IMG/VR virus record: IMGVR_UViG_3300021171_000008
Span: 1-64,000 of that record
Reading direction: 5' to 3' (one strand)
Length of the DNA stretch: 64,000 bases
From: a virus
Shown here: positions 8,769 through 62,866 of the stretch, one piece after another
How the letters are laid out: every line of letters starts with the position of its first letter
Position numbering within the stretch: position 1 is the first letter of the stretch
Position numbers and translations under genes: made by a program
Notes under the pieces: model-generated
What the model was told of the DNA's origin: nothing
Databases searched by the model: none
What the model saw: the letters and a program-made list of their open reading frames with translations, nothing else

Positions 8769-8800
8769 ACTGGGAGGACGAGACGTGACCCTCATCCTCC

Positions 8801-8914
8801 CAGCCTTGGCGTGCCTGCCTGCCTTGCCTTGCCTCGCCATGCCACGCCAAGCCTCGCGCCGCCCCGCCGAGCCGCGCCTTGCCATGCCTCGCATGGCCAC
8901 CGCCATGCCCCGCC
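8801..8914 (-). ncRNA. Stand-alone GGY-NN pentamer array (putative guide RNA unit B)
   Basis: GGC-NN periodicity; upstream promoter-like TTGCAG..TATCT; 5' hairpin GCATGGC-GGTG-GCCATGC; 3' hairpin 8770-8803. Confidence 0.8.
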
Positions 8915-8954
8915 CAGATAACATGATTTGCACGAACTGCAAGGGCGCTCAGCC

Positions 8955-17964: not shown

Positions 17965-18093
17965 GGTTTCGACTCCTGTAGGCGACATAAATATAGCGTT
18001 ATTTGCACGATCTGCAAGTGCCGGTCAGGGCTCGCACACCTTGTCCGAAGCGGCAGTCGGTACCATGCTTCAGCGGACGCGATGGTCATCAGG

Positions 18094-28306: not shown

Positions 28307-28533
28307 GTTCGACTCCCTGCGGGGGCGGCCCACATAAAGGCCGCCCCCGACCTCCCACGGACCGCTCAGCTCATTGGCGCGCGCCTAAGCGGCCACTTCG
28401 CTGCCGTTCCCGACGACCAGCGCATCGAATCGGCCGAACGAGCTGAACGATGGGCACGCCTATCTTGCCGGTTGCACCAACTGCAAGTCAATCGAATTTG
28501 CATTCGGCGCAAGAACGCCTATCTTTCGCCGCC

Positions 28534-31705: not shown

Positions 31706-31739
31706 CGCCACTTGCACCAACTGCAAATTTGGCTAGCCT

Positions 31740-43022: not shown

Positions 43023-43411
43023 TGGTTCAGAGTCCCGCTCGCGTTCCTCAGACGTAGACTTTCCCGCTGCCGCCCTCTTCGATGTCGATCGGGTCATATT
43101 CGCCCGTGACCGCGCCGAACTCGTCAGGCTGCAACAGATATTCGCGGACATGTTCCCAGCCGCGATCTGCGGTGCGAGGCACGATGCGCAAAAGATGCTC
43201 CGGCGGGAACCCAAAGGACTCGTCCTCAAAATCAACGCGCACGCAGTCCGCCGTCTCGCGCTCGCTTCCAGTGACAGTCGCCAACTCGCAAGCGACCAGC
43301 CGTCCGTCCCAGTCGGCAATGTCATCGCCCTCAAGGTCCACTCGGTCGCCAATGCGAATATCGGCGGCCTTCACTTCGATCATGCATTCCATGGTCTTCG
43401 ACTCCGTTGGT

Positions 43412-43467
43412 AGGCTCATCAGTGGCGGCCAAACCGCCAGACGCGCGCCAGAGCGCGCGTTTCGCCT
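43412..43467 (-). ncRNA. Hammerhead ribozyme, type II
   Basis: AGGC-GAAAC-[GCGCGC/GCGCGC]-GUC-[UGGCGG/CCGCCA]-CUGAUGA-GCCU. Confidence 0.92.
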
Positions 43468-44746: not shown

Positions 44747-46120
44747 GGTTCGACTCCTCACTCCACTTGCAGATCATGCAAATGGACGCCAGGAATGGAT
44801 CGCGGTCAAGAGCGCTTCAGTGGATCTCGTCGTCGACGTCGAAGTCTCGCTTGGGCGATGGCTCACGGTCGTCGATCGCTTGCCAGTTGCGCTCGGTCTT
44901 TTGAGCGCGAATTTTCGCCAGCTCTTTGTCCGTGAGCGTGCCGAACCGATCGACCAGCTCAAGCTTGCCGCCGTTGTACCAAGCCGCGCCTTTGGTCGGA
45001 TTGATGAGCCGACGCCAGACGTCGCCGTGCTCGGCCTGGAAGCGCAACCGTCGATCGCGGACGAAAGCGCTGTCCGCAATGATCTCCACCGTGTCAGGGA
45101 TCTCGCCACGCCGCAGATAGGGCCACAGGCGCGCAGCGATGATCCACTCGCGGCAATTGGGCTTGCGGAACGCCTCATGCGCCCAACGCCCGCAGTGGGC
45201 TAATTCGCCGCTATCGCGAATCCAGGCCAAATCGCCATAACGCCGCTCGGTCAGTACGCGCGCCGTCAAAGTGCGGTCCGAGCGTTTCGCGGCCGGTCCA
45301 GGGCGCCGAATGGAACAGGTGATCAGCACCGCGCGCGTGGCTCGATTGATCACCGCCCAAGGCTCAAACAACGCCAGAACCTCATCAGCGCTCGCCAGGG
45401 TTGGACTTCCCCGCCTCGCAATTTCAATCATTTGCGCCTCCGCTACCAAAACCTGTCAAGCGAAATCGCCACTCCAAAAACCCCAATCTTATCAAAGCCA
45501 AAACCCTAAGCCCTTGACATCCTTCAACTGTCCCTGCTATCCCCTCGCGCGCGAATCCCTAACAAATTACAGCAGCCCACTGGGCCTAGGCGTCGCTAGG
45601 CCCCCTGTGGGGATGCGACTGCAAATGATCAACCATAAAAAACCTTCGATCTTAGGGCTTCTAGGGGACGTTAGCGTCCCTATCTCCTCCCTTTCTGCAC
45701 CTTCTGCAAGCGCTTCTAAGCGCTTCGCGCCTTACGGCGAAGCTTAGAAGCTCTCTCCTATAAAAAGACAGCACAGAGCCTCTACCTTCGTTCCCCTTCA
45801 CCCGCTGGTCCCTTCCTCGGAGACTGAAACGAGTGTCGTTTTGTCCTGTCCCTGGCCGGTTCTGCGCCGGTTGCGCGTCGAGCGCTGCGAGCGGGCTCAA
45901 ACAGGGGCTAAGTGCTTGATGTTGCTGAGTGCTGTGCGTGTATCTGAAGATTGTGAGACACGCAATAAACGCATACCACTTCCGGGGCGTGCATCGTGCC
46001 AAATCAGTGCCAATAGAGGGCCGCTGCGGCGGCAGGAGGGTGGGGGGGGGACCGCCCATCTTGAACTTTTAGGCTTGTAGCGTTGAGGTAAAAATCTGGT
46101 TGGTTTGGCGGAGATTGAAC

Positions 46121-46699
46121 ATGGCAGATCCGGGAAAGCCAAGGGCACGGAAGAGCAGGGCGCTGACGAGTGAGGAATTGGCGGAGCGGGAGAAGCAGGC
46201 GAAGGAGATGGAGGGTTCGATTGAGCAGATGTCGGCGAATGGTCTGACGCCTCAGGAGATCAGTTTGCTGACGGGGTTGAGCGCGGATCGGCTGTACAGG
46301 AAGTACAAGGGGCAGATGATGAAGGGCGGGGCGAGGCGGACGAACGAGGTTGCGCAGGCGGCGTATTTGATGGCGACGGGGGGACCGGAGAAGAACTGGC
46401 GACAGGCTGACGCGAGTATGAACAAATTTTGGTTAGAGCGTCGTGGTGGGCCGATCTGGGCGCCGCCGAAGCCGGATCAGGAAGCGGGGCCGGACTTGAC
46501 GCGGTTGAGTGTTCCGCAATTGATTGAGTTGGAGCGGGCGTTGCGGCCGCTAGCGAGACATCCGGTGCTGATTGATGCCGAGGTCGAATCTACCGAGCCA
46601 CGAGGCGGTGGTGGCGGAGTTGATGAAAAGGGAGCTGGGGATTTCGTCGATGGAGGCGTCGGCGAGCGTGTCGACGGTTCGGGAGCGGTGCCGGAATAG
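46121..46699 (+). CDS. Terminase small subunit (putative)
   Basis: HTH-like N-half, KFWLERRGG; directly upstream of and overlapping TerL. Confidence 0.65.
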   Translation: MADPGKPRARKSRALTSEELAEREKQAKEMEGSIEQMSANGLTPQEISLLTGLSADRLYRKYKGQMMKGGARRTNEVAQAAYLMATGGPEKNWRQADASMNKFWLERRGGPIWAPPKPDQEAGPDLTRLSVPQLIELERALRPLARHPVLIDAEVESTEPRGGGGGVDEKGAGDFVDGGVGERVDGSGAVPE

Positions 46700-48233
46700 T
46701 TTGGTGAATTTTGTTGAGGAGGCGTGGCCGATTTTGGAGCCCCGGATGGTGTTTGTGAAGGGGCCTTTGGTCGAGGCGATCTGCGAGCATTTGGAAGCGG
46801 TTTCGGCGGGGCTGATTACGCGGCTGTTGATCAATGTTCCGCCTGGGTCGGCGAAGTCGCTTTTGGTCAGTGTGCTTTGGCCGAGCTGGGAATGGGGCCC
46901 TCGGGGTCTGACGTCGTATCGGTACATCAGCTCCAGTTTTGCGGAGAGCGCGTGCGTTCGGGACGTTCGCAAGATGCGGATGTTGGTGACCAGCGACTGG
47001 TATCAGCGTCACTGGCCGCATGTTGAGTTGACGCGCGGTGGGGAGCTGTCGTTTGAAAATTCGATGACGGGGACGCGGGACGGGGTTGCGTTCTCCAGTC
47101 TGACTAGCCGGCGCGGTGACAGATTGATTCTGGATGACCCGCACAGTGTGGAGAAGGCGGAGAGCCCGAACGATCGGGAGAAGGCGACGCGGCGGTTTCG
47201 GGAGAGCGCGGTGAACCGTCTGAACGATCAGGCGCGCTCGGCGATCGTTGTGGTGATGCAGCGGCTGCACGAGGCGGACATCAGCGGGGTGATCATGGAG
47301 TACATGCCCGATTATTGTTTGTTGGTTTTGCCGATGGAGTACGAATCGTCGCGGCATTGCGAAACGAGCATTGGATTTAGCGACTGGCGGCGCAGCGAGG
47401 GGGAGCTTTTGTTTCCGGCGCGGTGGGGCCGGCAGGAGGTTGAGAACCTCAAGCGGGACATGGACAAATTTGCGTGGGCTGGCCAGTACCAGCAGCGGCC
47501 GGCGCCGCGAGGCGGGGGGCTGTTTCCGTATGGCGGCTGGGAATATTGGCATCGCGGGATTGCGCTGACGTTCGGCAGGAACGAATCGCAATATCCGGAC
47601 ATGGACGTGATCCTGGGCTCGCTGGACCCGGCTTACGGCGAGAAGCAGGAAGCCGATTTTTCGGCCTTCATCGTGCTCGGGCTCTGGACGAACCATCGCG
47701 GGGTGCAACAGGCGATGTTGATGGCTTGCTGGCAGAAGCGGCTGGCGTTGAACGATCTGGTCGAGGAGGTGATCAAATCGTGCAGAAAATTGAAGGTCGA
47801 TCGGCTCTTAATCGAGCTGAAAGCGTCAGGGATCTCGGTCGCGCAGGAGATTTCGCGGCTGACGCGGGACGAGGAATTTGCGGTCCAGCGGATCGATCCG
47901 GGTAATATGGACAAGGTTTCGCGCGCGAACGCGCTGTCGCATTTGTGGGGCGAGGAGCAGGCGGATGGCAGTGTGCGCAAGGGCGTCATCTGGTGCCCAG
48001 CTCAGACGCAGAGTAACGGGGCGGTTTGGCCTCGGGATTGGGCCGAGCTGTGCATGAGCCAGTGCGCGAGCTTCCCGAAAGGGAAATTCGACGACATCGT
48101 TGACGCCTTGTGTCAGGCGCTGAAGTGGTGCCGCGATCGGGGCTTGCTGAAGAAGTCGACCGAGGTCCAGGCGGAGGAATACGCGGAGCTGATGGCGTCG
48201 CCGCTTCCCCCGCAGCCGCTGTACCCGATTTGA
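46575..48233 (+). CDS. terL: Terminase large subunit
   Basis: LLINVPPGSAKS, LILDDPH, VVMQRLHE, QYQQRP, IELKASG, FPKGKFDDIVDA. Confidence 0.95.
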   Translation: MPRSNLPSHEAVVAELMKRELGISSMEASASVSTVRERCRNSLVNFVEEAWPILEPRMVFVKGPLVEAICEHLEAVSAGLITRLLINVPPGSAKSLLVSVLWPSWEWGPRGLTSYRYISSSFAESACVRDVRKMRMLVTSDWYQRHWPHVELTRGGELSFENSMTGTRDGVAFSSLTSRRGDRLILDDPHSVEKAESPNDREKATRRFRESAVNRLNDQARSAIVVVMQRLHEADISGVIMEYMPDYCLLVLPMEYESSRHCETSIGFSDWRRSEGELLFPARWGRQEVENLKRDMDKFAWAGQYQQRPAPRGGGLFPYGGWEYWHRGIALTFGRNESQYPDMDVILGSLDPAYGEKQEADFSAFIVLGLWTNHRGVQQAMLMACWQKRLALNDLVEEVIKSCRKLKVDRLLIELKASGISVAQEISRLTRDEEFAVQRIDPGNMDKVSRANALSHLWGEEQADGSVRKGVIWCPAQTQSNGAVWPRDWAELCMSQCASFPKGKFDDIVDALCQALKWCRDRGLLKKSTEVQAEEYAELMASPLPPQPLYPI

Positions 48234-48781
48234 CCTAAACGGCCACGGCGGCTATATTCGCCATTATGACCACAGATGAGGCCGTGACCATTTTGGACAA
48301 CATTCCGGGGAATGTGGTCGTTCCGGCCGCTAAGGTCGTTCAGATGTTGCGCGCATGGAAAGGCGTCGATGCAAACGAGGTCATCGACGTGCTGGAGCAG
48401 TTGAGGCCGTCTGAGGTGCTTGAAGTCGTCGCGTTCGCCGAGCGCAAAATCGCCCGCCGGAATCGGCCGCGCTAGGAGCGTTGGAAGATGACGCGGGCGG
48501 AGGCGATCAGGGCGATGGATCGGCGGATGAGGGTCCGAGTCGGTGCGTTCCGTAATCCGGACAGCTGGGGTTATTGCGAGGGAGTGATCACGCACATCTG
48601 CCGCTGCGGCGTGGTTGGCGTCGAGGACGATGGCGGGACGACCTATTTCCGGCCGCAGCGGACTGTGCGGGCGGTGGGACCGGCCCCAGCGCCGGAACCG
48701 GCCCCTTCAGTCCATCCGTGAGGCGCGTTGGCGGACCGAACCTCCGGACTGTACACCTCCATCCTGGGAGGAAAAAGCGAC

Positions 48782-49606
48782 ATGACGCTGATCCGGGTGT
48801 TTCCACGCAAGACGAAGGCGACGCCGGACGACGAGCTGGCCTATTTCGGACCCCCTGATTTGTTCGCGCGCGCCGACGAGGTGCATGTTTCGGTGGCGTT
48901 CACCTACGACAAGCCGAAGGCGGAATGGCTGGCCGAGCAATGGCGGCATGTTGCGCCGGTCAAGGTCGGCGGCGTCGCTTATGGCGATCGCGGTGATGAG
49001 TTTGTTCCTGGCCGCTACATCAAGCCAGGGTACGTCTTCACCAGCCGGGGGTGCCCTCGGCGTTGCTGGTTCTGTTCGGTCTGGAAACGCGACCCGGTTC
49101 CGAGGTTGTTGCCGGTCATCGACGGCTGGAACATTCTCGATGACAATCTTCTCGCCTGCCCGCGCGAGCATGTCGAGGCGGTGTTTGCGATGCTGCGGGG
49201 GCAGAAGCGGCGGGTGGAGTTCACTGGGGGTCTGGAGGCGCTGGCCTTGGAGGATTATCAGGTCGATCTCTTGGCGGGTCTCACGCCTCGACCGAACATG
49301 TTCTTCGCCTACGATCCCGGCGACGAGTTCGAGACGCTGCGCTCGGCGGCGCGGCGGCTTTTGGATGCCGGGTTCACTGCCGAATCGCATCGGATGCGGG
49401 TCTATGTGCTGATTGGCTATCCCAAGGATACGATCAGCGCCGCCGTAGAGCGGTTGCGCGCTATGGAGGGAATTGGGTTCACGCCGATGGCGATGCTGTG
49501 GCGCCCGGAGACGCTGAGTCAGGAGAAATGGACGCCGGATTGGCGCTGGCGCGGGTTTCAGCGGCGGTGGGCGCGGCCAGCGCTGATTCATGCGCGTGCG
49601 GTGTAA
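48782..49606 (+). CDS. Radical SAM protein
   Basis: TSRGCPRRCWFC (CxxxCxxC), LDDNLLA, YVLIGY. Confidence 0.85.
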   Translation: MTLIRVFPRKTKATPDDELAYFGPPDLFARADEVHVSVAFTYDKPKAEWLAEQWRHVAPVKVGGVAYGDRGDEFVPGRYIKPGYVFTSRGCPRRCWFCSVWKRDPVPRLLPVIDGWNILDDNLLACPREHVEAVFAMLRGQKRRVEFTGGLEALALEDYQVDLLAGLTPRPNMFFAYDPGDEFETLRSAARRLLDAGFTAESHRMRVYVLIGYPKDTISAAVERLRAMEGIGFTPMAMLWRPETLSQEKWTPDWRWRGFQRRWARPALIHARAV

Positions 49607-50273
49607 CCCCGATGGGCATCTGGGCGTTGATCGTGATGTGGTGGCGGGCGCGGCAGCGGGACGTCGACATGGAGATCCTGTGGCCGATCTGCCTGCGGGA
49701 GGCGGGCGATCTCGACCGGGCGAAAGCAGCATTTGCATTTCATGCTATGAACGACCCCGCGTGGTTGTGCCTGGGCGAGGAGCGGTTGCTCGCCTTCATC
49801 GACCGCCTGGAGGCCTATGACTGATGCCGACGAGCCGCCGTCTCTATGGAAACGCGGTTGATCAGATTGCCGATCGACTGACGGAGTCGCGCAAGCTCCT
49901 GCTTGAGGCGTTCAAAGCGATGGTGGATGAGCGCCCTGGCGAGGCGCAGACGTTGCTCGAACAGGCTGAGATGACGATTAGCGGCGCGGCGACGTTGGCC
50001 AAGTGGGCGACGACGCTCGTGAAGGAGGCGCGATGAGGATCGCGATTGTGCTTTTGGCCAATGCGCTCGTTTGGACGGCGCTTTGGCAGCTGGCGTCAGC
50101 GATGGCGCAATTCCGATGACCTCGCCAGCGCGGCAGCGGTTGTTGGACTTGGCGCAGAAGCTGGAGGATAGAGTTCCTCTGACGCCGAAGGAAAAGGCCT
50201 TTCTCGTGAGCGCCCTGTTAGCGATCAGCTTGGGCGTGGACGCCAATGAGGCGCTGTGGCTTAAGGACCGCAA

Positions 50274-50350
50274 GCCCAGGTAGCTCAGTTCGGTAGAGCG
50301 CTGCGTTGAAGGCGCAGGCGTCGGAGGTTCGATTCCTTCCTTGGGCACCA
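50274..50350 (+). tRNA. trnF: tRNA-Phe(GAA) with encoded CCA
   Basis: Full cloverleaf: GCCCAGG/CTTGGGC acceptor, CTGCG-TTGAAGG-CGCAG anticodon arm, GGAGG-TTCGATT-CCTTC T arm. Confidence 0.9.
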
Positions 50351-50820
50351 ACCAACATGCCAGATTCATCGAGCGCTTGCGCGGCTCGAAACCGGGCGTG
50401 TTCGCTTTCGCCTATTGGCTCAACTCGCGCGGCTACTGGGTCGAGATTGCGCCGACCAGGGAAGCGCCGTGCGCGGCCGAGCACCCGCAGTACATCGACG
50501 GCGGCGACCTATTCGCCTGGAAGGATGGCCCGAGGCTGCGAATCGAGGTCAAGACGCTTGGCGTCACCTTTCGCGGCCGAAACGATTGGCCCTATCCCAA
50601 TGTTTTCGTCGCTAGCGCGATGTCGGTCGATCGCGCGATCGGCGAGGTCTATGCCTGGGTGAGCGTGAGCCATGACCTCGCCGCCGCCGTGATGATGGAG
50701 GCGACGACGTTCGGGACGTGGACCCGCACAACGAAGACCGCCAGCAATACCGGGAATGACGAGATCTTCTACGCGGCCCCGATGGAGGGGGTGAAATTCA
50801 TCAAATTGGCTCAGAGTTGA
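50341..50820 (+). CDS. PD-(D/E)XK nuclease-like protein
   Basis: DGGDLF..RIEVK; start uncertain (TTG inside tRNA). Confidence 0.5.
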   Translation: MGTNQHARFIERLRGSKPGVFAFAYWLNSRGYWVEIAPTREAPCAAEHPQYIDGGDLFAWKDGPRLRIEVKTLGVTFRGRNDWPYPNVFVASAMSVDRAIGEVYAWVSVSHDLAAAVMMEATTFGTWTRTTKTASNTGNDEIFYAAPMEGVKFIKLAQS

Positions 50821-51209: not shown

Positions 51210-51295
51210 CATTTCTGGGCCTTGACGTTTCGCAGATCGTGCAAATATGGGCGAAACCACGGCCTACCGTTGGCTATTACAGCAAAGGAGTCGAA

Positions 51296-52111
51296 ATGAA
51301 GTCCCCGAGGGTGACGGCTAAGAAAGAATCCGTCGAAATCAAACCGATTGAGATGCGCAAATTCGTCGTCCATCTGGTCGGCGAGAATCTTCTCATGCAC
51401 CGCTTCGCGCAAAAAGCGTGGCAAGAACTGCTTTTGCCCGCCTCGAAAGGGAAGGCGGCCGAAGGCGCGCCGCTCAAGCATGATCCTCTGAGCGAGTTTC
51501 GCGATTCGCTCTATCGCTGCCGCGACGTCCAGGCGCCAACCCTGTTTCACTTGCCGAACGGCATCGTGAGCAAGGCCATGGCGGCGGCGGCGCTCGACAT
51601 GGGCGGGGCGTTCAAGACACAAATCCAGCGGCTGACCATGGTTCTGACGCCGACGCTGCATTTGTACGGCGTGCCGGAGCTGCGCATGGACATGGTGCGC
51701 AACTCCGATATGGCCAGGACGCCGGATGTGCGGACGCGGCCGATCTTTAAGCGCTGGGCGCTCCCCAATGTGGTGATCCAGTACAAGGTCGCGCCGCTCA
51801 ACGACAGCCAGATGCTGAATCTGCTCGCGGGCGCCGGCCAGATCGTCGGTTTCGGTGATGGTCGCCAGCAAAAGGGCGGTGGCCCGGAGGGCGGCCCGTT
51901 CGGCTGCTTCCGCATCGTCAGCGATCACAATGATCCGGAGCTGAAGGAGATCATGGCGACCGGCGGGCGGGCCGCACAGCAGGCCGCGTGGACCGATCCG
52001 GAGATGTTCGACGAGAACACCGCCGAATTGATGGACTGGTTCAACGTTGAGATCGATCGCCGCCACAAGCCTCGTCGGGGCGATGGCGCCGCCGTGCAAG
52101 TGGGAGCTTGA
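51296..52111 (+). CDS. Cas7/RAMP-like RNA-binding protein, putative effector of the GGY-NN arrays
   Basis: VHLVGENLLMH first strand, HLPNGIVSKAMAAAA helix, C-terminal Gly-rich loop AGQIVGFGDGRQQKGGG..FGCFRI; own promoter CTTGAC-N17-AATATG at 51221-51249. Confidence 0.75.
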   Translation: MKSPRVTAKKESVEIKPIEMRKFVVHLVGENLLMHRFAQKAWQELLLPASKGKAAEGAPLKHDPLSEFRDSLYRCRDVQAPTLFHLPNGIVSKAMAAAALDMGGAFKTQIQRLTMVLTPTLHLYGVPELRMDMVRNSDMARTPDVRTRPIFKRWALPNVVIQYKVAPLNDSQMLNLLAGAGQIVGFGDGRQQKGGGPEGGPFGCFRIVSDHNDPELKEIMATGGRAAQQAAWTDPEMFDENTAELMDWFNVEIDRRHKPRRGDGAAVQVGA

Positions 52112-52112
52112 A

Positions 52113-52604
52113 ATGGAGCAAGAACGACGAGAGCTTTTGTGGCAGGCGTTGGTCGCCAGCGCTGTTGACGGTCTCATCACGGCCGATAGCGTGGTCGAAG
52201 CCGCGAAGGACCCCGCGAACGTCCTGCACGGCGAGTTCGAGTGGCGGGACGATGTCGCCGCTCACCGATACAGGCTGCAACAGGCGCGGCAGCTGATCCG
52301 GATCTATTCCCCGCGAGTGGATTACATCTCGATCAAGGACGAGGCGCCGGTCGAGCGCGACATCGTCTACTTGCACGATCCGCGCGTCGGCCCGCGTGTC
52401 CAGGCCTACGTGTCGTCGGCCACTCTCGCGGACGATGGCGACGCTTCGCTCACGGCGGTCTTGCTCGAACTCAGGTCCGTCAGCGCGGCGGTGACGCGGC
52501 TCGCGCGCGTCGCTCATGCTCTGGGAGTCGAGTGCCCGACTGGGGATCTGGAGGCCGCCGTCCAGGCGTTGGCTGAGCGTCTCCAGGGGCGGAATGCAGC
52601 GTAA
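52113..52604 (+). CDS. Partner protein in RAMP operon
   Basis: VVEAAKDPANVLHGEFEWRDDVAAHRYRLQQARQLIR; lies between RAMP gene and array. Confidence 0.7.
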   Translation: MEQERRELLWQALVASAVDGLITADSVVEAAKDPANVLHGEFEWRDDVAAHRYRLQQARQLIRIYSPRVDYISIKDEAPVERDIVYLHDPRVGPRVQAYVSSATLADDGDASLTAVLLELRSVSAAVTRLARVAHALGVECPTGDLEAAVQALAERLQGRNAA

Positions 52605-52614
52605 GTGCGTATCA

Positions 52615-52884
52615 GGCAAGGCAGGCACGGTTAGGTGGGGCCGGGTAAGGCGAGGCAGGGTCAGGTTAGGTCCGGTGAGGCAGAGCAAGGCAGGCGCGGC
52701 TGGGCTGGGCAAGCCTTGGGCGGCATGGCTGGGCGCGCTTTGGTATGGCTCGGCAGGGCTCGGCAGGCACGGCGTGGCAAGGCGCGGCGAGGCTTGTCAA
52801 GGCATGGCTGGGCTAGGCGAGGCAGGCGAGGCAAGGCGAGGCTCGGTCTGGTGCGGCCGGGTCAGGCGAGGCAGGCCATGGCAC
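52615..52884 (+). ncRNA. Main GGY-NN pentamer array (four units separated by GGCA), putative guide RNAs
   Basis: About 50 GGY-NN units starting 10 nt after the partner gene stop and ending at a terminator. Confidence 0.85.
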
Positions 52885-52889
52885 GGGGG

Positions 52890-52915
52890 AGGGGGCGGCT
52901 TCGGCCGCCCCCTTT
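52890..52915 (+). terminator. Intrinsic terminator after array
   Basis: AGGGGGCGGC-TTCG-GCCGCCCCCT-TT. Confidence 0.8.
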
Positions 52916-53566
52916 CTATTTGTCGACCATCCTCGACACGACCGATCGCGTGAACGGGCGGCCGGACGAGCTGACAAAGCCCTGGTTCGCCAGCGCTGCG
53001 CGCACCGCGTTGAGCGATGCGCCTGCCTGACGCAGCTGCTTTGCGATCTTGGTCATCTTCGGGTCCATTTCGGCCCAGGATTTTCTGCCCTCGCACTTGC
53101 CGGTCGTGGCCTTCTTGCGGTCGCGCGCCGCCTTGAGCTTGGCGACCGTCAATGCCCGGTCGAACTCAGCGACCGCGCCCAGGATCTGCCGGACCAGGGA
53201 CGCCGTCGGCGTGTCCTCGACGAAGCTCCCAGGCGAATCGACGGCGACCAACTCGACGCCGAGATCTTGAAGCATCTTCCAGCCGGTTTCCTGCACCATG
53301 AGATCGCGGGCGAAGCGGTTGGCGGTCTCGACGAGGATCGTTCTCACGCCATTCCCGGCGATCCGCTGGAGCATGAGGCCGAAGCCCTCCCGCTGGGTGA
53401 CCGGATCGGCGCCGGAGACGGCGGCGTCGTAATATTCGGCGACGATCGAGATATCGTTTCGCTCGGCGAACTGGCGGACGGCCCGCTCTTGGCGGCCGAG
53501 GCTGTCCTTGTCGACGCCGACGTTGGTGGCGGACGAGGTTCGGAAGTAGGCGACGGCTTTTTTCAC
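52916..53566 (-). CDS. Serine recombinase (resolvase family) with C-terminal HTH
   Basis: AVAYFRTSS, SLGRQ, DAAVSG, NRFARD, ILGAVAEFDR. Confidence 0.9.
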   Translation of the reverse strand: MKKAVAYFRTSSATNVGVDKDSLGRQERAVRQFAERNDISIVAEYYDAAVSGADPVTQREGFGLMLQRIAGNGVRTILVETANRFARDLMVQETGWKMLQDLGVELVAVDSPGSFVEDTPTASLVRQILGAVAEFDRALTVAKLKAARDRKKATTGKCEGRKSWAEMDPKMTKIAKQLRQAGASLNAVRAALANQGFVSSSGRPFTRSVVSRMVDK

Positions 53567-54287
53567 TGCTAAACTCCTGTTGGCGACCGAGTCGCCTTTC
53601 TCCTGTTGATGACGGGGGCCGCCGCGAATCCGCAGGCGCGGCGGCCTTTCTCGTTAGCTGGCGGCGGATCACGAGCACCCCAGGTTTAGTCCCCAGGAGC
53701 GGCAAGCCGATGCCGTGTCCGCCTGTTTCTCATATAGCGCATTGCGAGACAGGTTGCAAGTTCTGCAAATCGACGTATCGTGCAAATCAGCGGAGACTCT
53801 TGTCCCGCTCGGGCGGTTCGCGAGCGAAACCCGCCCCCCGGATATCGCGATGGGGCCGCCCGTCCTTTTGGAGGAAACCAAGTGAGCGAAACGAAGGAAA
53901 TTGTTGAACGATTGAACCGTCTGTTGAAGACGGTCAGCCGGGTGATCGGGCTCGATATCGAGGTCGAGGAATCCGGCGATCACCTGATTTTCATCGACGC
54001 GGACGGCGAGCCGATCACGAATGACGGCGAAGAAATTATCGCCGCGACGCCGCAAGAGCTTGAGGCGAAGACGTTCCTCGTCGACTTCCCGGTTCGGGCG
54101 TTCCGGGCGGGCATGATGGCCAAGTATCAGGACATCTCCAGGGCGAGGTCAGAGCCATGAGCGTCTTTCTGGACGAGCTGGACGAGCTGATCGAGTCGAC
54201 GATCGAGGATGGCTCCATGACGAAGGACGCGATCATCGCCGATCTGGAGCTGAAGGTGGCGATGCTCAAGGAGGAGAAGGGCGACTC

Positions 54288-54644
54288 ATGATCGAGATCG
54301 GACGACGCGGATTCATCACTGGGCTTGCCGCTCTCGTCGCCGCTCCGGCGATCATTCGCGTCGCGCCGCTCATGCCGATCTCGACGCGGCTCACCCCGCT
54401 CTATGTGCCGATCGATTGGCTCGCGGATGCGATCATCGACATGGGGAATCGGGTTGAGAGGACCGGGTTGGGGAAGCTTGAGAGGATCGAGTTGGAGAGG
54501 CTTGAGAGGATCGAGTTGGAGAAGCATGCGTGGTCGAGGCCGCTGGCGGACAACTGGATCAATCTCCGCGATTACGATCCTGACTTCGTCCGGCAATGGA
54601 CCGGCAATGGCGAACTCACGAGTCCGGAGTACTGGCTGTCATGA
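54288..54644 (+). CDS. Small protein with twin-arginine-like leader
   Basis: IGRRGFITGLAALVAAPA; internal LERIE duplication. Confidence 0.5.
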   Translation: MIEIGRRGFITGLAALVAAPAIIRVAPLMPISTRLTPLYVPIDWLADAIIDMGNRVERTGLGKLERIELERLERIELEKHAWSRPLADNWINLRDYDPDFVRQWTGNGELTSPEYWLS

Positions 54645-62684: not shown

Positions 62685-62762
62685 TGCCTGCCTCGCCGCG
62701 CCTTGCCTTGCGCCGCCCTGCCACGCCTCGCCAAGCCTTGCCTTGACAGGCCTTGCCTCGCC
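62685..62762 (-). ncRNA. Stand-alone GGY-NN pentamer array (putative guide RNA unit C)
   Basis: 14 pentamers plus 2 GGCA; promoter TTGCAA-N17-TATCTT (62813-62785); 5' and 3' hairpins. Confidence 0.82.
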
Positions 62763-62866
62763 TCGGTGCATTTGCACCAACTGCAAGATAAGGGCCCTTT
62801 CGCGCAATTGCAATCGGCGCTAGGAATTGCCGCGTTGAAAGGCTGGACCCCAAAGAGGGTTCCGCC

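Follow-up and report, generated by a model that had tools for sequence, protein, structure and literature searches.

A GGY/NN repeat guide of an uncultivated soil phage matches the serine recombinase of sibling phages exactly and that of its carrier imperfectly

Introduction

The Viral Interference Programmable Repeat (VIPR) system, described in 2026, relies on Vipr, a small Cas7-like RAMP protein that coats the GGY/NN repeats of a guide, the vrRNA, typically comprising 9–16 repeats with a constant GGY and a hypervariable NN (10.64898/2026.04.26.720920). According to the available text of that preprint, the NN dinucleotides pair with double-stranded DNA, one target base, usually in the wobble position, being skipped between the pairs, and binding represses transcription; most natural targets are in coding sequence. 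In the available text of the VIPR preprints Vipr is characterised as a minimal RAMP with an RRM core, a G-loop and a thumb; cryo-EM structures have been reported (10.64898/2026.04.26.720927). A guide against a serine recombinase is already known, since in a study of phage-satellite competition the vrRNA4 of SUSP1 silenced the excision serine recombinase of F5 satellites (10.64898/2026.10.15.759431), and it was argued there that a target cannot escape without breaking the gene. Natural VIPR targets have been mapped mainly in elements of E. coli and Pseudomonas, whereas here a statistically secure guide-to-target assignment is reported for an uncultivated soil phage.

Genome and organisation of the locus

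The genome IMGVR_UViG_3300021171_000008 comprises 78,422 bp and is 100% complete according to CheckV. The window analysed is its first 64 kb (positions 1 to 64,000) and has a G+C content of 63%; the features discussed are listed in Table 1. Three GGY/NN arrays, with about eight guides in total, are present in the 78-kb genome, namely a main array in the vipr operon and two solo arrays located 44 kb upstream and 10 kb downstream of it.

Table 1. Coordinates of the features discussed (positions in the window unless a phage locus is named)
Feature	Position	Strand	Basis and remarks
Promoter-like region of the vipr operon	51,222–51,252	+	TTGACG, 17-nt spacer with TCGCAGATCGTGCAAAT motif, TATGGG; putative promoter function
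vipr, 271-aa Cas7-like RAMP, presumed vrRNA-binding effector	51,296–52,111	+	profile and AF2 model
Candidate vap (accessory) gene, 163 aa	52,113–52,604	+	coding GC3 and position; putative role
Main vrRNA array, GGY/NN pentamers, units U1–U4, 4-nt GGCA junctions	52,615–52,876	+	
Unit 4 (U4)	52,825–52,872	+	NN string GA AA GA TC CT GC CG CA GA, NNs at 52,828–52,869
Intrinsic terminator, 14-bp GC-rich hairpin, UUCG loop, U-rich tail	52,886–52,921	+	fold and sequence
Small serine recombinase (resolvase/invertase type), 216 aa, GTG start	52,916–53,566	-	PF00239
Own near-target of U4, codons 19–27, DKDSLGRQE	53,486–53,512	-	mismatch at codons 22 and 24
TTGCAG-N-GTGCAAAT copies	8,926–8,942; 18,001–18,017; 28,470–28,486; 31,710–31,726; 62,770–62,786	-	
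TTGCAG-N-GTGCAAAT copies	44,767–44,783; 51,230–51,246; 53,754–53,770	+	
Two solo GGY/NN arrays, own promoters	8,800–8,930 and 62,690–62,770	-	each ends in GGCAGGCAGG and a hairpin
Array of Mycobacterium phage Donkeykong (Cheoctovirus)	L006:2915–3270		about 37 kb into the genome
Array of Mycobacterium phage Quico (Cheoctovirus)	L007:2985–3250		about 37 kb into the genome

The main array starts right after the stop codon of the preceding gene; GGC or GGT alternates in it with a variable dinucleotide, and it scores 9/9 for GGY at 5-nt spacing. Unit 4 lies between the GGCA junctions at 52,821–52,824 and 52,870–52,873 and reads GGC GA GGC AA GGC GA GGC TC GGT CT GGT GC GGC CG GGT CA GGC GA. Its nine repeats all carry GGC or GGT, while U1 and U3, with 13 and 11 repeats, respectively, contain some degenerate triplets. 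No structured 3' tail accompanies the repeat tracts of the main array, which has GGCA only and a single terminal hairpin. Tail-less 'staggered arrays', which the main array resembles, exist in other VIPR types according to the available text of the first preprint (10.64898/2026.04.26.720920), and the tail-less units therefore argue against a type II architecture rather than against VIPR. Readings of the array as a coding sequence, a G-quadruplex or a TRAP-like protein sponge were dropped, the content of the NN positions being explained by the VIPR code.

The terminator was recognised by its fold and sequence; a simple terminator scanner did not call it. Its hairpin spans 52,886–52,917, and the last two bases overlap the stop codon of the resolvase gene (52,916–52,918), so that this gene does abut the array terminator, as originally predicted.

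The motif TTGCAG-N-GTGCAAAT occurs in eight copies in the window against 0.07 expected. It holds the inverted repeat TTGCA/TGCAA, and three of the copies are placed directly 5' of the vipr operon and of the two solo arrays. The motif is probably a phage promoter or operator common to the VIPR parts and other early units. Among the small ORFs of the window lies a tRNA-Phe (GAA) gene at 50,274–50,350 (+), and a 118-aa ORF contains a 24-nt tandem repeat in three copies (89% matches; 54,454–54,525, +), in which a LERIELE-type peptide is repeated.

The Vipr homologue and the candidate accessory gene

The 271-aa protein has 199 metagenomic homologues, none of them named. A profile built from 40 of these homologues matches PDB entry 36pp, 'SUSP1 Vipr protein', with an E value of 3.8e-7; the match spans the region of the GDWRP-type loop, and the similarity is confined to about 50 residues. 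The best PDB matches of an alignment-based AF2 model (pLDDT 83) are Csm3/Cas7 chains of type III-A complexes, including 6ifn_F/E (E 1e-4). The 163-aa ORF shows a coding GC3, its sole family match being phrog_15946, whose function is not known, and no Pfam match was obtained. It sits between vipr and the array, as in the published vipr-vap layout.

A Vipr homologue, GGY/NN pentamers and in-frame targets with a 1-nt skip were thus all found. As in described VIPR systems, a Cas7-like vipr gene adjoins GGY/NN arrays, the 1-nt skip of the guides coincides with the wobble position, a phage encodes the system, and its targets are in other phages. The locus differs from known VIPR systems in the 4-nt GGCA junctions, in the terminal hairpin being the only one, with no conserved tail or pseudoknot between the units, in the two further solo arrays with their own promoters far from the operon, and in the length of Vipr (271 aa against 202 aa in SUSP1). 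Class 1 CRISPR-Cas systems are comparable in that a RAMP backbone (Cas7) coats the guide at a fixed periodicity, and in that guides directed against relatives need a mismatched self copy; unlike them, the locus has no CRISPR repeats, no cas1 or cas2 and no contiguous pairing, and according to the preprints double-stranded DNA is recognised without a PAM. Taken jointly with the silencing function proposed below for U4, the vipr gene, the candidate vap gene and the vrRNA array probably form a VIPR locus.

A blastn search with the main array returned 27 mycobacteriophage records containing GGC-NN pentamer arrays of about 300 nt punctuated by TGGCAGGC and placed, within the early rightward operon, directly 3' of a DUF7304 gene. 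The array of Donkeykong is annotated as hypothetical protein gp48, and that of Quico carries no annotation. By their sequence these look like staggered vrRNA arrays; mycobacteriophages receive no mention in the available text of the VIPR preprint (10.64898/2026.04.26.720920), and the DUF7304 protein has no detectable relation to the vap candidate or the Vipr profile.

Between two minus-strand genes, at 43,406–43,467 (-) of the window, is a type II hammerhead ribozyme (Rfam RF02276) that scores 39.3 bits, the gathering score being 37. Arrays interspersed with hammerheads are mentioned in the available preprint text (10.64898/2026.04.26.720920); no GGY/NN array adjoins this one.

Match of unit 4 to the resolvase of its carrier

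The neighbouring minus-strand ORF matches PF00239 (E 1e-25, residues 4–153) as well as phrog_95 and phrog_125, and the catalytic-Ser motif YFRTSS at residues 7–12 is invariant in 12 homologues. With 216 aa the protein is of resolvase/invertase size and is not a large serine integrase. The original prediction that U4 decodes to the N-terminus of this recombinase was borne out by a direct reading of the unit and of codons 19–27, GAC AAG GAC AGC CTC GGC CGC CAA GAG. The agreement amounts, as predicted, to seven of the nine dinucleotides, or 15/18 read bases (83%), the differences being a swap of the Ser codon box at codon 22 (AGC against guide TC) and Gly for Ala at codon 24 (GGC against guide GC). 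NN4 is mismatched in full and NN6 in its second base, which places three mismatched read bases in the middle of the footprint. The matching codons are read in frame on the coding-sense strand, each skipped base being a wobble base, and U4 matches nowhere else so well on the two strands of the 78,422-bp genome. The site lies early in the gene, some 600 bp from the array.

This position would suit a guide meant for the resolvase of its own phage, in which the 15/18 match provides weak, tunable repression, for example in the timing of recombination. The identity of 83% also passes the threshold of at least 80% of the read bases at which targets are called in the available text of the preprints, a text from which mismatch tolerance is absent, so that weak self-repression stays a rival reading. 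A self-regulating guide is expected to track its own target, however, and the siblings are matched perfectly while the carrier is matched imperfectly; the mismatches leave the protein the same or almost the same, while base pairing is lost. Moreover, the guide against the large terminase gene (TerL) also fits relatives better than self, and a phage should not repress its TerL. Autoregulation is accordingly considered unlikely.

When the order of the NN dinucleotides of U4 was shuffled 500 times, a match of at least 15/18 read bases was found somewhere in the genome in 10% of the shuffles and one of at least seven of the nine NN in 5%, so that with about eight guides the self-match of U4 is not significant by itself. 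These rates would accord with mere chance resemblance, the guide being short and, like the coding sequence, rich in GC, and in the randomised-guide comparison that had been proposed as a refutation the match in the own genome indeed fails to stand out. None of the 500 shuffles reached 18/18 in the own genome, and it is the exact matches in relatives that supply the support.

Exact targets in sibling phages

A search of IMG/VR with the exact NNx pattern of U4 gave ten matches, nine of them at the same codons of resolvase homologues, where they encode DKDSLARQE with Ser as TCN and Ala as GCN. The gapped search in resolvases of related phages, which had been suggested as a check, thus yielded complete nine-of-nine matches in at least nine IMG/VR contigs and in four further metagenome contigs. 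The nine IMG/VR targets represent five distinct 27-mers that differ in wobble positions only, as expected of a code that ignores every third base. A control pattern containing the dinucleotides of U4 in reversed order gave a single match in IMG/VR. In 185,579 prokaryote genomes (596 Gb) the exact pattern matched 21 times, always in unrelated sequences, which represents the chance rate; none of these matches was in a resolvase of this family, and no host was indicated.

Compared with the control and the chance rate, the concentration of exact matches in the resolvase shows tuning of U4 to this family and, judged by these sequences, to the allele that encodes Ser by TCN (codon 22) and Ala by GCN (codon 24). 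A match of 18/18 at the same codons in nine independent viral contigs leaves chance resemblance with hardly any probability, and for practical purposes these matches and the reversed-order control refute it. The resolvase gene of the carrier as the thing decoded therefore stands in part: the match is real, but the guide fits the allele of the siblings, and the own gene is an imperfect partner. Searching IMG/VR for the full guide and the JGI metagenome contigs for a 7-NN core revealed no further carrier of U4, so that the link between the guide and the self allele comes from one genome.

Alleles of the target and exchange of cassettes among siblings

Twelve distinct resolvase homologues were compared in IMG/VR, nine of which carry the perfect target (9/9 NN, 18/18 read bases). 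The other three are L020 and L021, with AGC/CCC at codons 22/24, and L026, which differs at codons 23 and 24; the carrier has AGC/GGC. In a tree calculated without the nine target codons the own resolvase is sister to L018/L019, which have TCG/GCC, while L020/L021 group with phages having TCA/GCC (97% support), and codons 22 and 24 therefore changed at least twice. In an unbiased sample of 80 metagenomic homologues the close clade again has TCN/GCC, with one contig, L029, having AGC/GCC (8/9). Homologues of less than 70% identity differ in at least four target codons and mostly use AGC, and it is from the tree that the direction of the codon change is read.

Eight homologues agree in the first two bases of 120 codons. 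Only four of these are changed in the own gene, codons 22 and 24 among them, and the location of two of the four own-specific changes inside the U4 target has a hypergeometric p of about 0.03. At codon positions 1 and 2 the own resolvase and its sister differ by about 10%, and the probability of two changed codons in nine, estimated from this divergence, is near 0.5. Ten of the 15 Ser columns of the family are polymorphic for the codon box; such switching is frequent, and the swap at codon 22 is thus not unique.

The closest siblings, L013/L019 and L017/L018, have flanking genes that are 94–100% identical in protein. The L013/L017 siblings, represented by two fragments, share the terminator and the promoter and possess the perfect U4 target, but a cassette encoding an HNH and a membrane protein replaces vipr, vap and the array. 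The arrangement is that of one promoter slot with exchangeable cassettes (window 51,215–52,915 against L013:3,465–4,250), the sibling cassette encoding a fusion of an HNH endonuclease with a membrane domain; in L021 the slot contains an array followed by an HNH gene.

Neither a Vipr match nor a GGY/NN array was found in G001, G002 and G003 (91–100% complete) or in G005 (59% complete), all four of which carry the perfect U4 target. G004 has arrays with other guides and, like L021, the allele AGC/CCC. No U4-like guide was found in these two VIPR-positive phages, so that AGC/CCC cannot be self-avoidance of U4 there; it would be an escape from the guides of others. Contigs with a nearly unchanged VIPR cassette are present in the soil metagenome runs X3 and X4, as are contigs with the TCG/GCC/CAG allele and a junction into the HNH cassette, which means that the VIPR and HNH forms occur in the same soil runs. 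A search for RNA runs containing the locus listed none.

U4 might alternatively be a relic, recording a past conflict or copied from a resolvase gene and no longer processed or used, with ordinary divergence accounting for the difference between self and non-self. It is the shortest unit of the array and the last one ahead of the terminator, its two changed target codons are compatible with the overall divergence of the gene, and the searches of IMG/VR and JGI metagenome contigs gave no second carrier. All nine of its GGY triplets are nevertheless intact, its 18 read bases still match five present-day alleles that differ at the wobble only, and a sibling bearing the target co-occurs in the same soil runs, all of which makes a relic improbable.

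Other guides

The 11-NN core of U1 matches TerL in 22/22 read bases in G003, G005, L012, L013 and L017, against 18/22 in TerL of the carrier. The 12-NN core of array C (62.7 kb) has a single exact match (24/24) in all of IMG/VR, located in G001, a VIPR-less phage that also carries the U4 target; the own gene matches at 20/24. For the array at 8.8 kb the values are 18/20 in relatives and 16/20 in the own gene. The best own-genome match of each solo array is the adjoining gene. The self near-matches of U4, U1 and both solo arrays, four in all, keep the reading frame and follow the coding-sense strand.

Neither U2 nor U3 has a self-match better than shuffles. The exact full-length pattern of U3 and the 10-NN core of array B gave no matches in IMG/VR, nor did U3 match five relatives with up to three mismatches. 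Guides of the G004/L028 array compared with the own genome and seven loci all remained below 18/20.

The array of L021 (L021:2,990–3,260, -) consists of four units with other guides. The first of them matches 9/12 NN at a different site of TerL (ICEHLEAV...) in the own phage and several relatives, and one of the mismatches, in L016, is a difference of the Leu codon box (guide TT against CTC).

Switching of Ser codon boxes

In TerL (46,572–48,233), compared with L012, L013 and L016 at 90–93% protein identity, 31–45% of the conserved Ser pairs are switched between the TCN and AGY boxes. This is 62–93% of the value for full randomisation, and in these comparisons fourfold-degenerate third positions are at 63–66% of saturation; switching in the resolvase is similar to that in TerL. 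In the neighbouring genes (48,488–50,820), compared with the same sibling at 96–99% protein identity, none of 25 Ser pairs is switched. Two substitutions are required for a box switch, and under neutrality it would not be expected to keep level with synonymous changes made in one step. Such parity would fit selection to alter the read bases without altering the protein, and is offered as a lead.

In this phage clade each guide that has been decoded spans a Ser codon for which carrier and best-matching relatives have opposite boxes; no sequence with the TCN allele spelled by array B was found. It is conceivable, though we hold the idea at somewhat less than even probability, that switching between the boxes of six-fold degenerate codons, chiefly Ser TCN/AGY, evades VIPR and separates self from sibling, leaving a population-wide footprint of VIPR conflict.

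A proposed role of unit 4 in competition between siblings

The comparisons favour a guide that probably silences the resolvase of rivals, the allele of the carrier being the non-matching variant. By homology with SUSP1 the array transcript would be cut at the GGCA junctions. Vipr protomers would then coat each unit, one per GGYNN repeat, and the U4 particle would read double-stranded DNA by the NNx code with its 1-nt skip over a 26-bp footprint, both by analogy with SUSP1. Binding early in the resolvase gene of a sibling would block its transcription, as VIPR does on the satellite recombinase in E. coli. A co-infecting or resident sibling could be handicapped by U4 in combination with U1, whose target is TerL, and array C, whose target is a virion gene. 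The mismatches due to Ser TCN->AGC and Ala->Gly (GCC->GGC) would spare the own gene, presumably by abolishing binding. The own gene may have been recoded after U4 arose, or U4 may have been kept on a stretch where self already differed from siblings.

Like vrRNA4 of SUSP1, U4 reads codon positions 1 and 2 in the catalytic domain of a serine recombinase near the active-site serine and ignores the wobble. The target of vrRNA4, however, belongs to an unrelated satellite, and no phage homologue is at risk, whereas the targets described here are siblings' orthologues of a gene of the carrier, which creates a self/non-self problem. For the solo vrRNAs of SUSP1-like phages that target vrRNAs, self-match scores are also below competitor scores, interpreted by the authors as a means of avoiding autoimmunity (10.64898/2026.10.15.759431); those targets are non-coding vrRNA loci, while here they are protein-coding orthologues distinguished by protein-neutral or near-neutral codon changes. 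In contrast to the claim that targets cannot escape, two lineages here changed the read bases with Ser kept (TCN->AGY, together with a tolerant Ala codon).

What is new is that the guides are directed at sibling genes with orthologues in the carrier itself, namely resolvase, TerL and a virion gene, and that near-identical phages from the same soil runs carry either a VIPR or an HNH cassette behind one promoter, which constitutes a natural experiment. New too is evidence from nature that a Ser box switch and a tolerant neighbouring codon can circumvent the 'no escape' argument for wobble skipping. The allele pairs TCG/GCC, AGC/GCC, AGC/GGC and AGC/CCC make the mismatch tolerance of VIPR testable. 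If selection underlies the switching of codon boxes, its rates could reveal genes under VIPR-type attack without knowledge of the guides.
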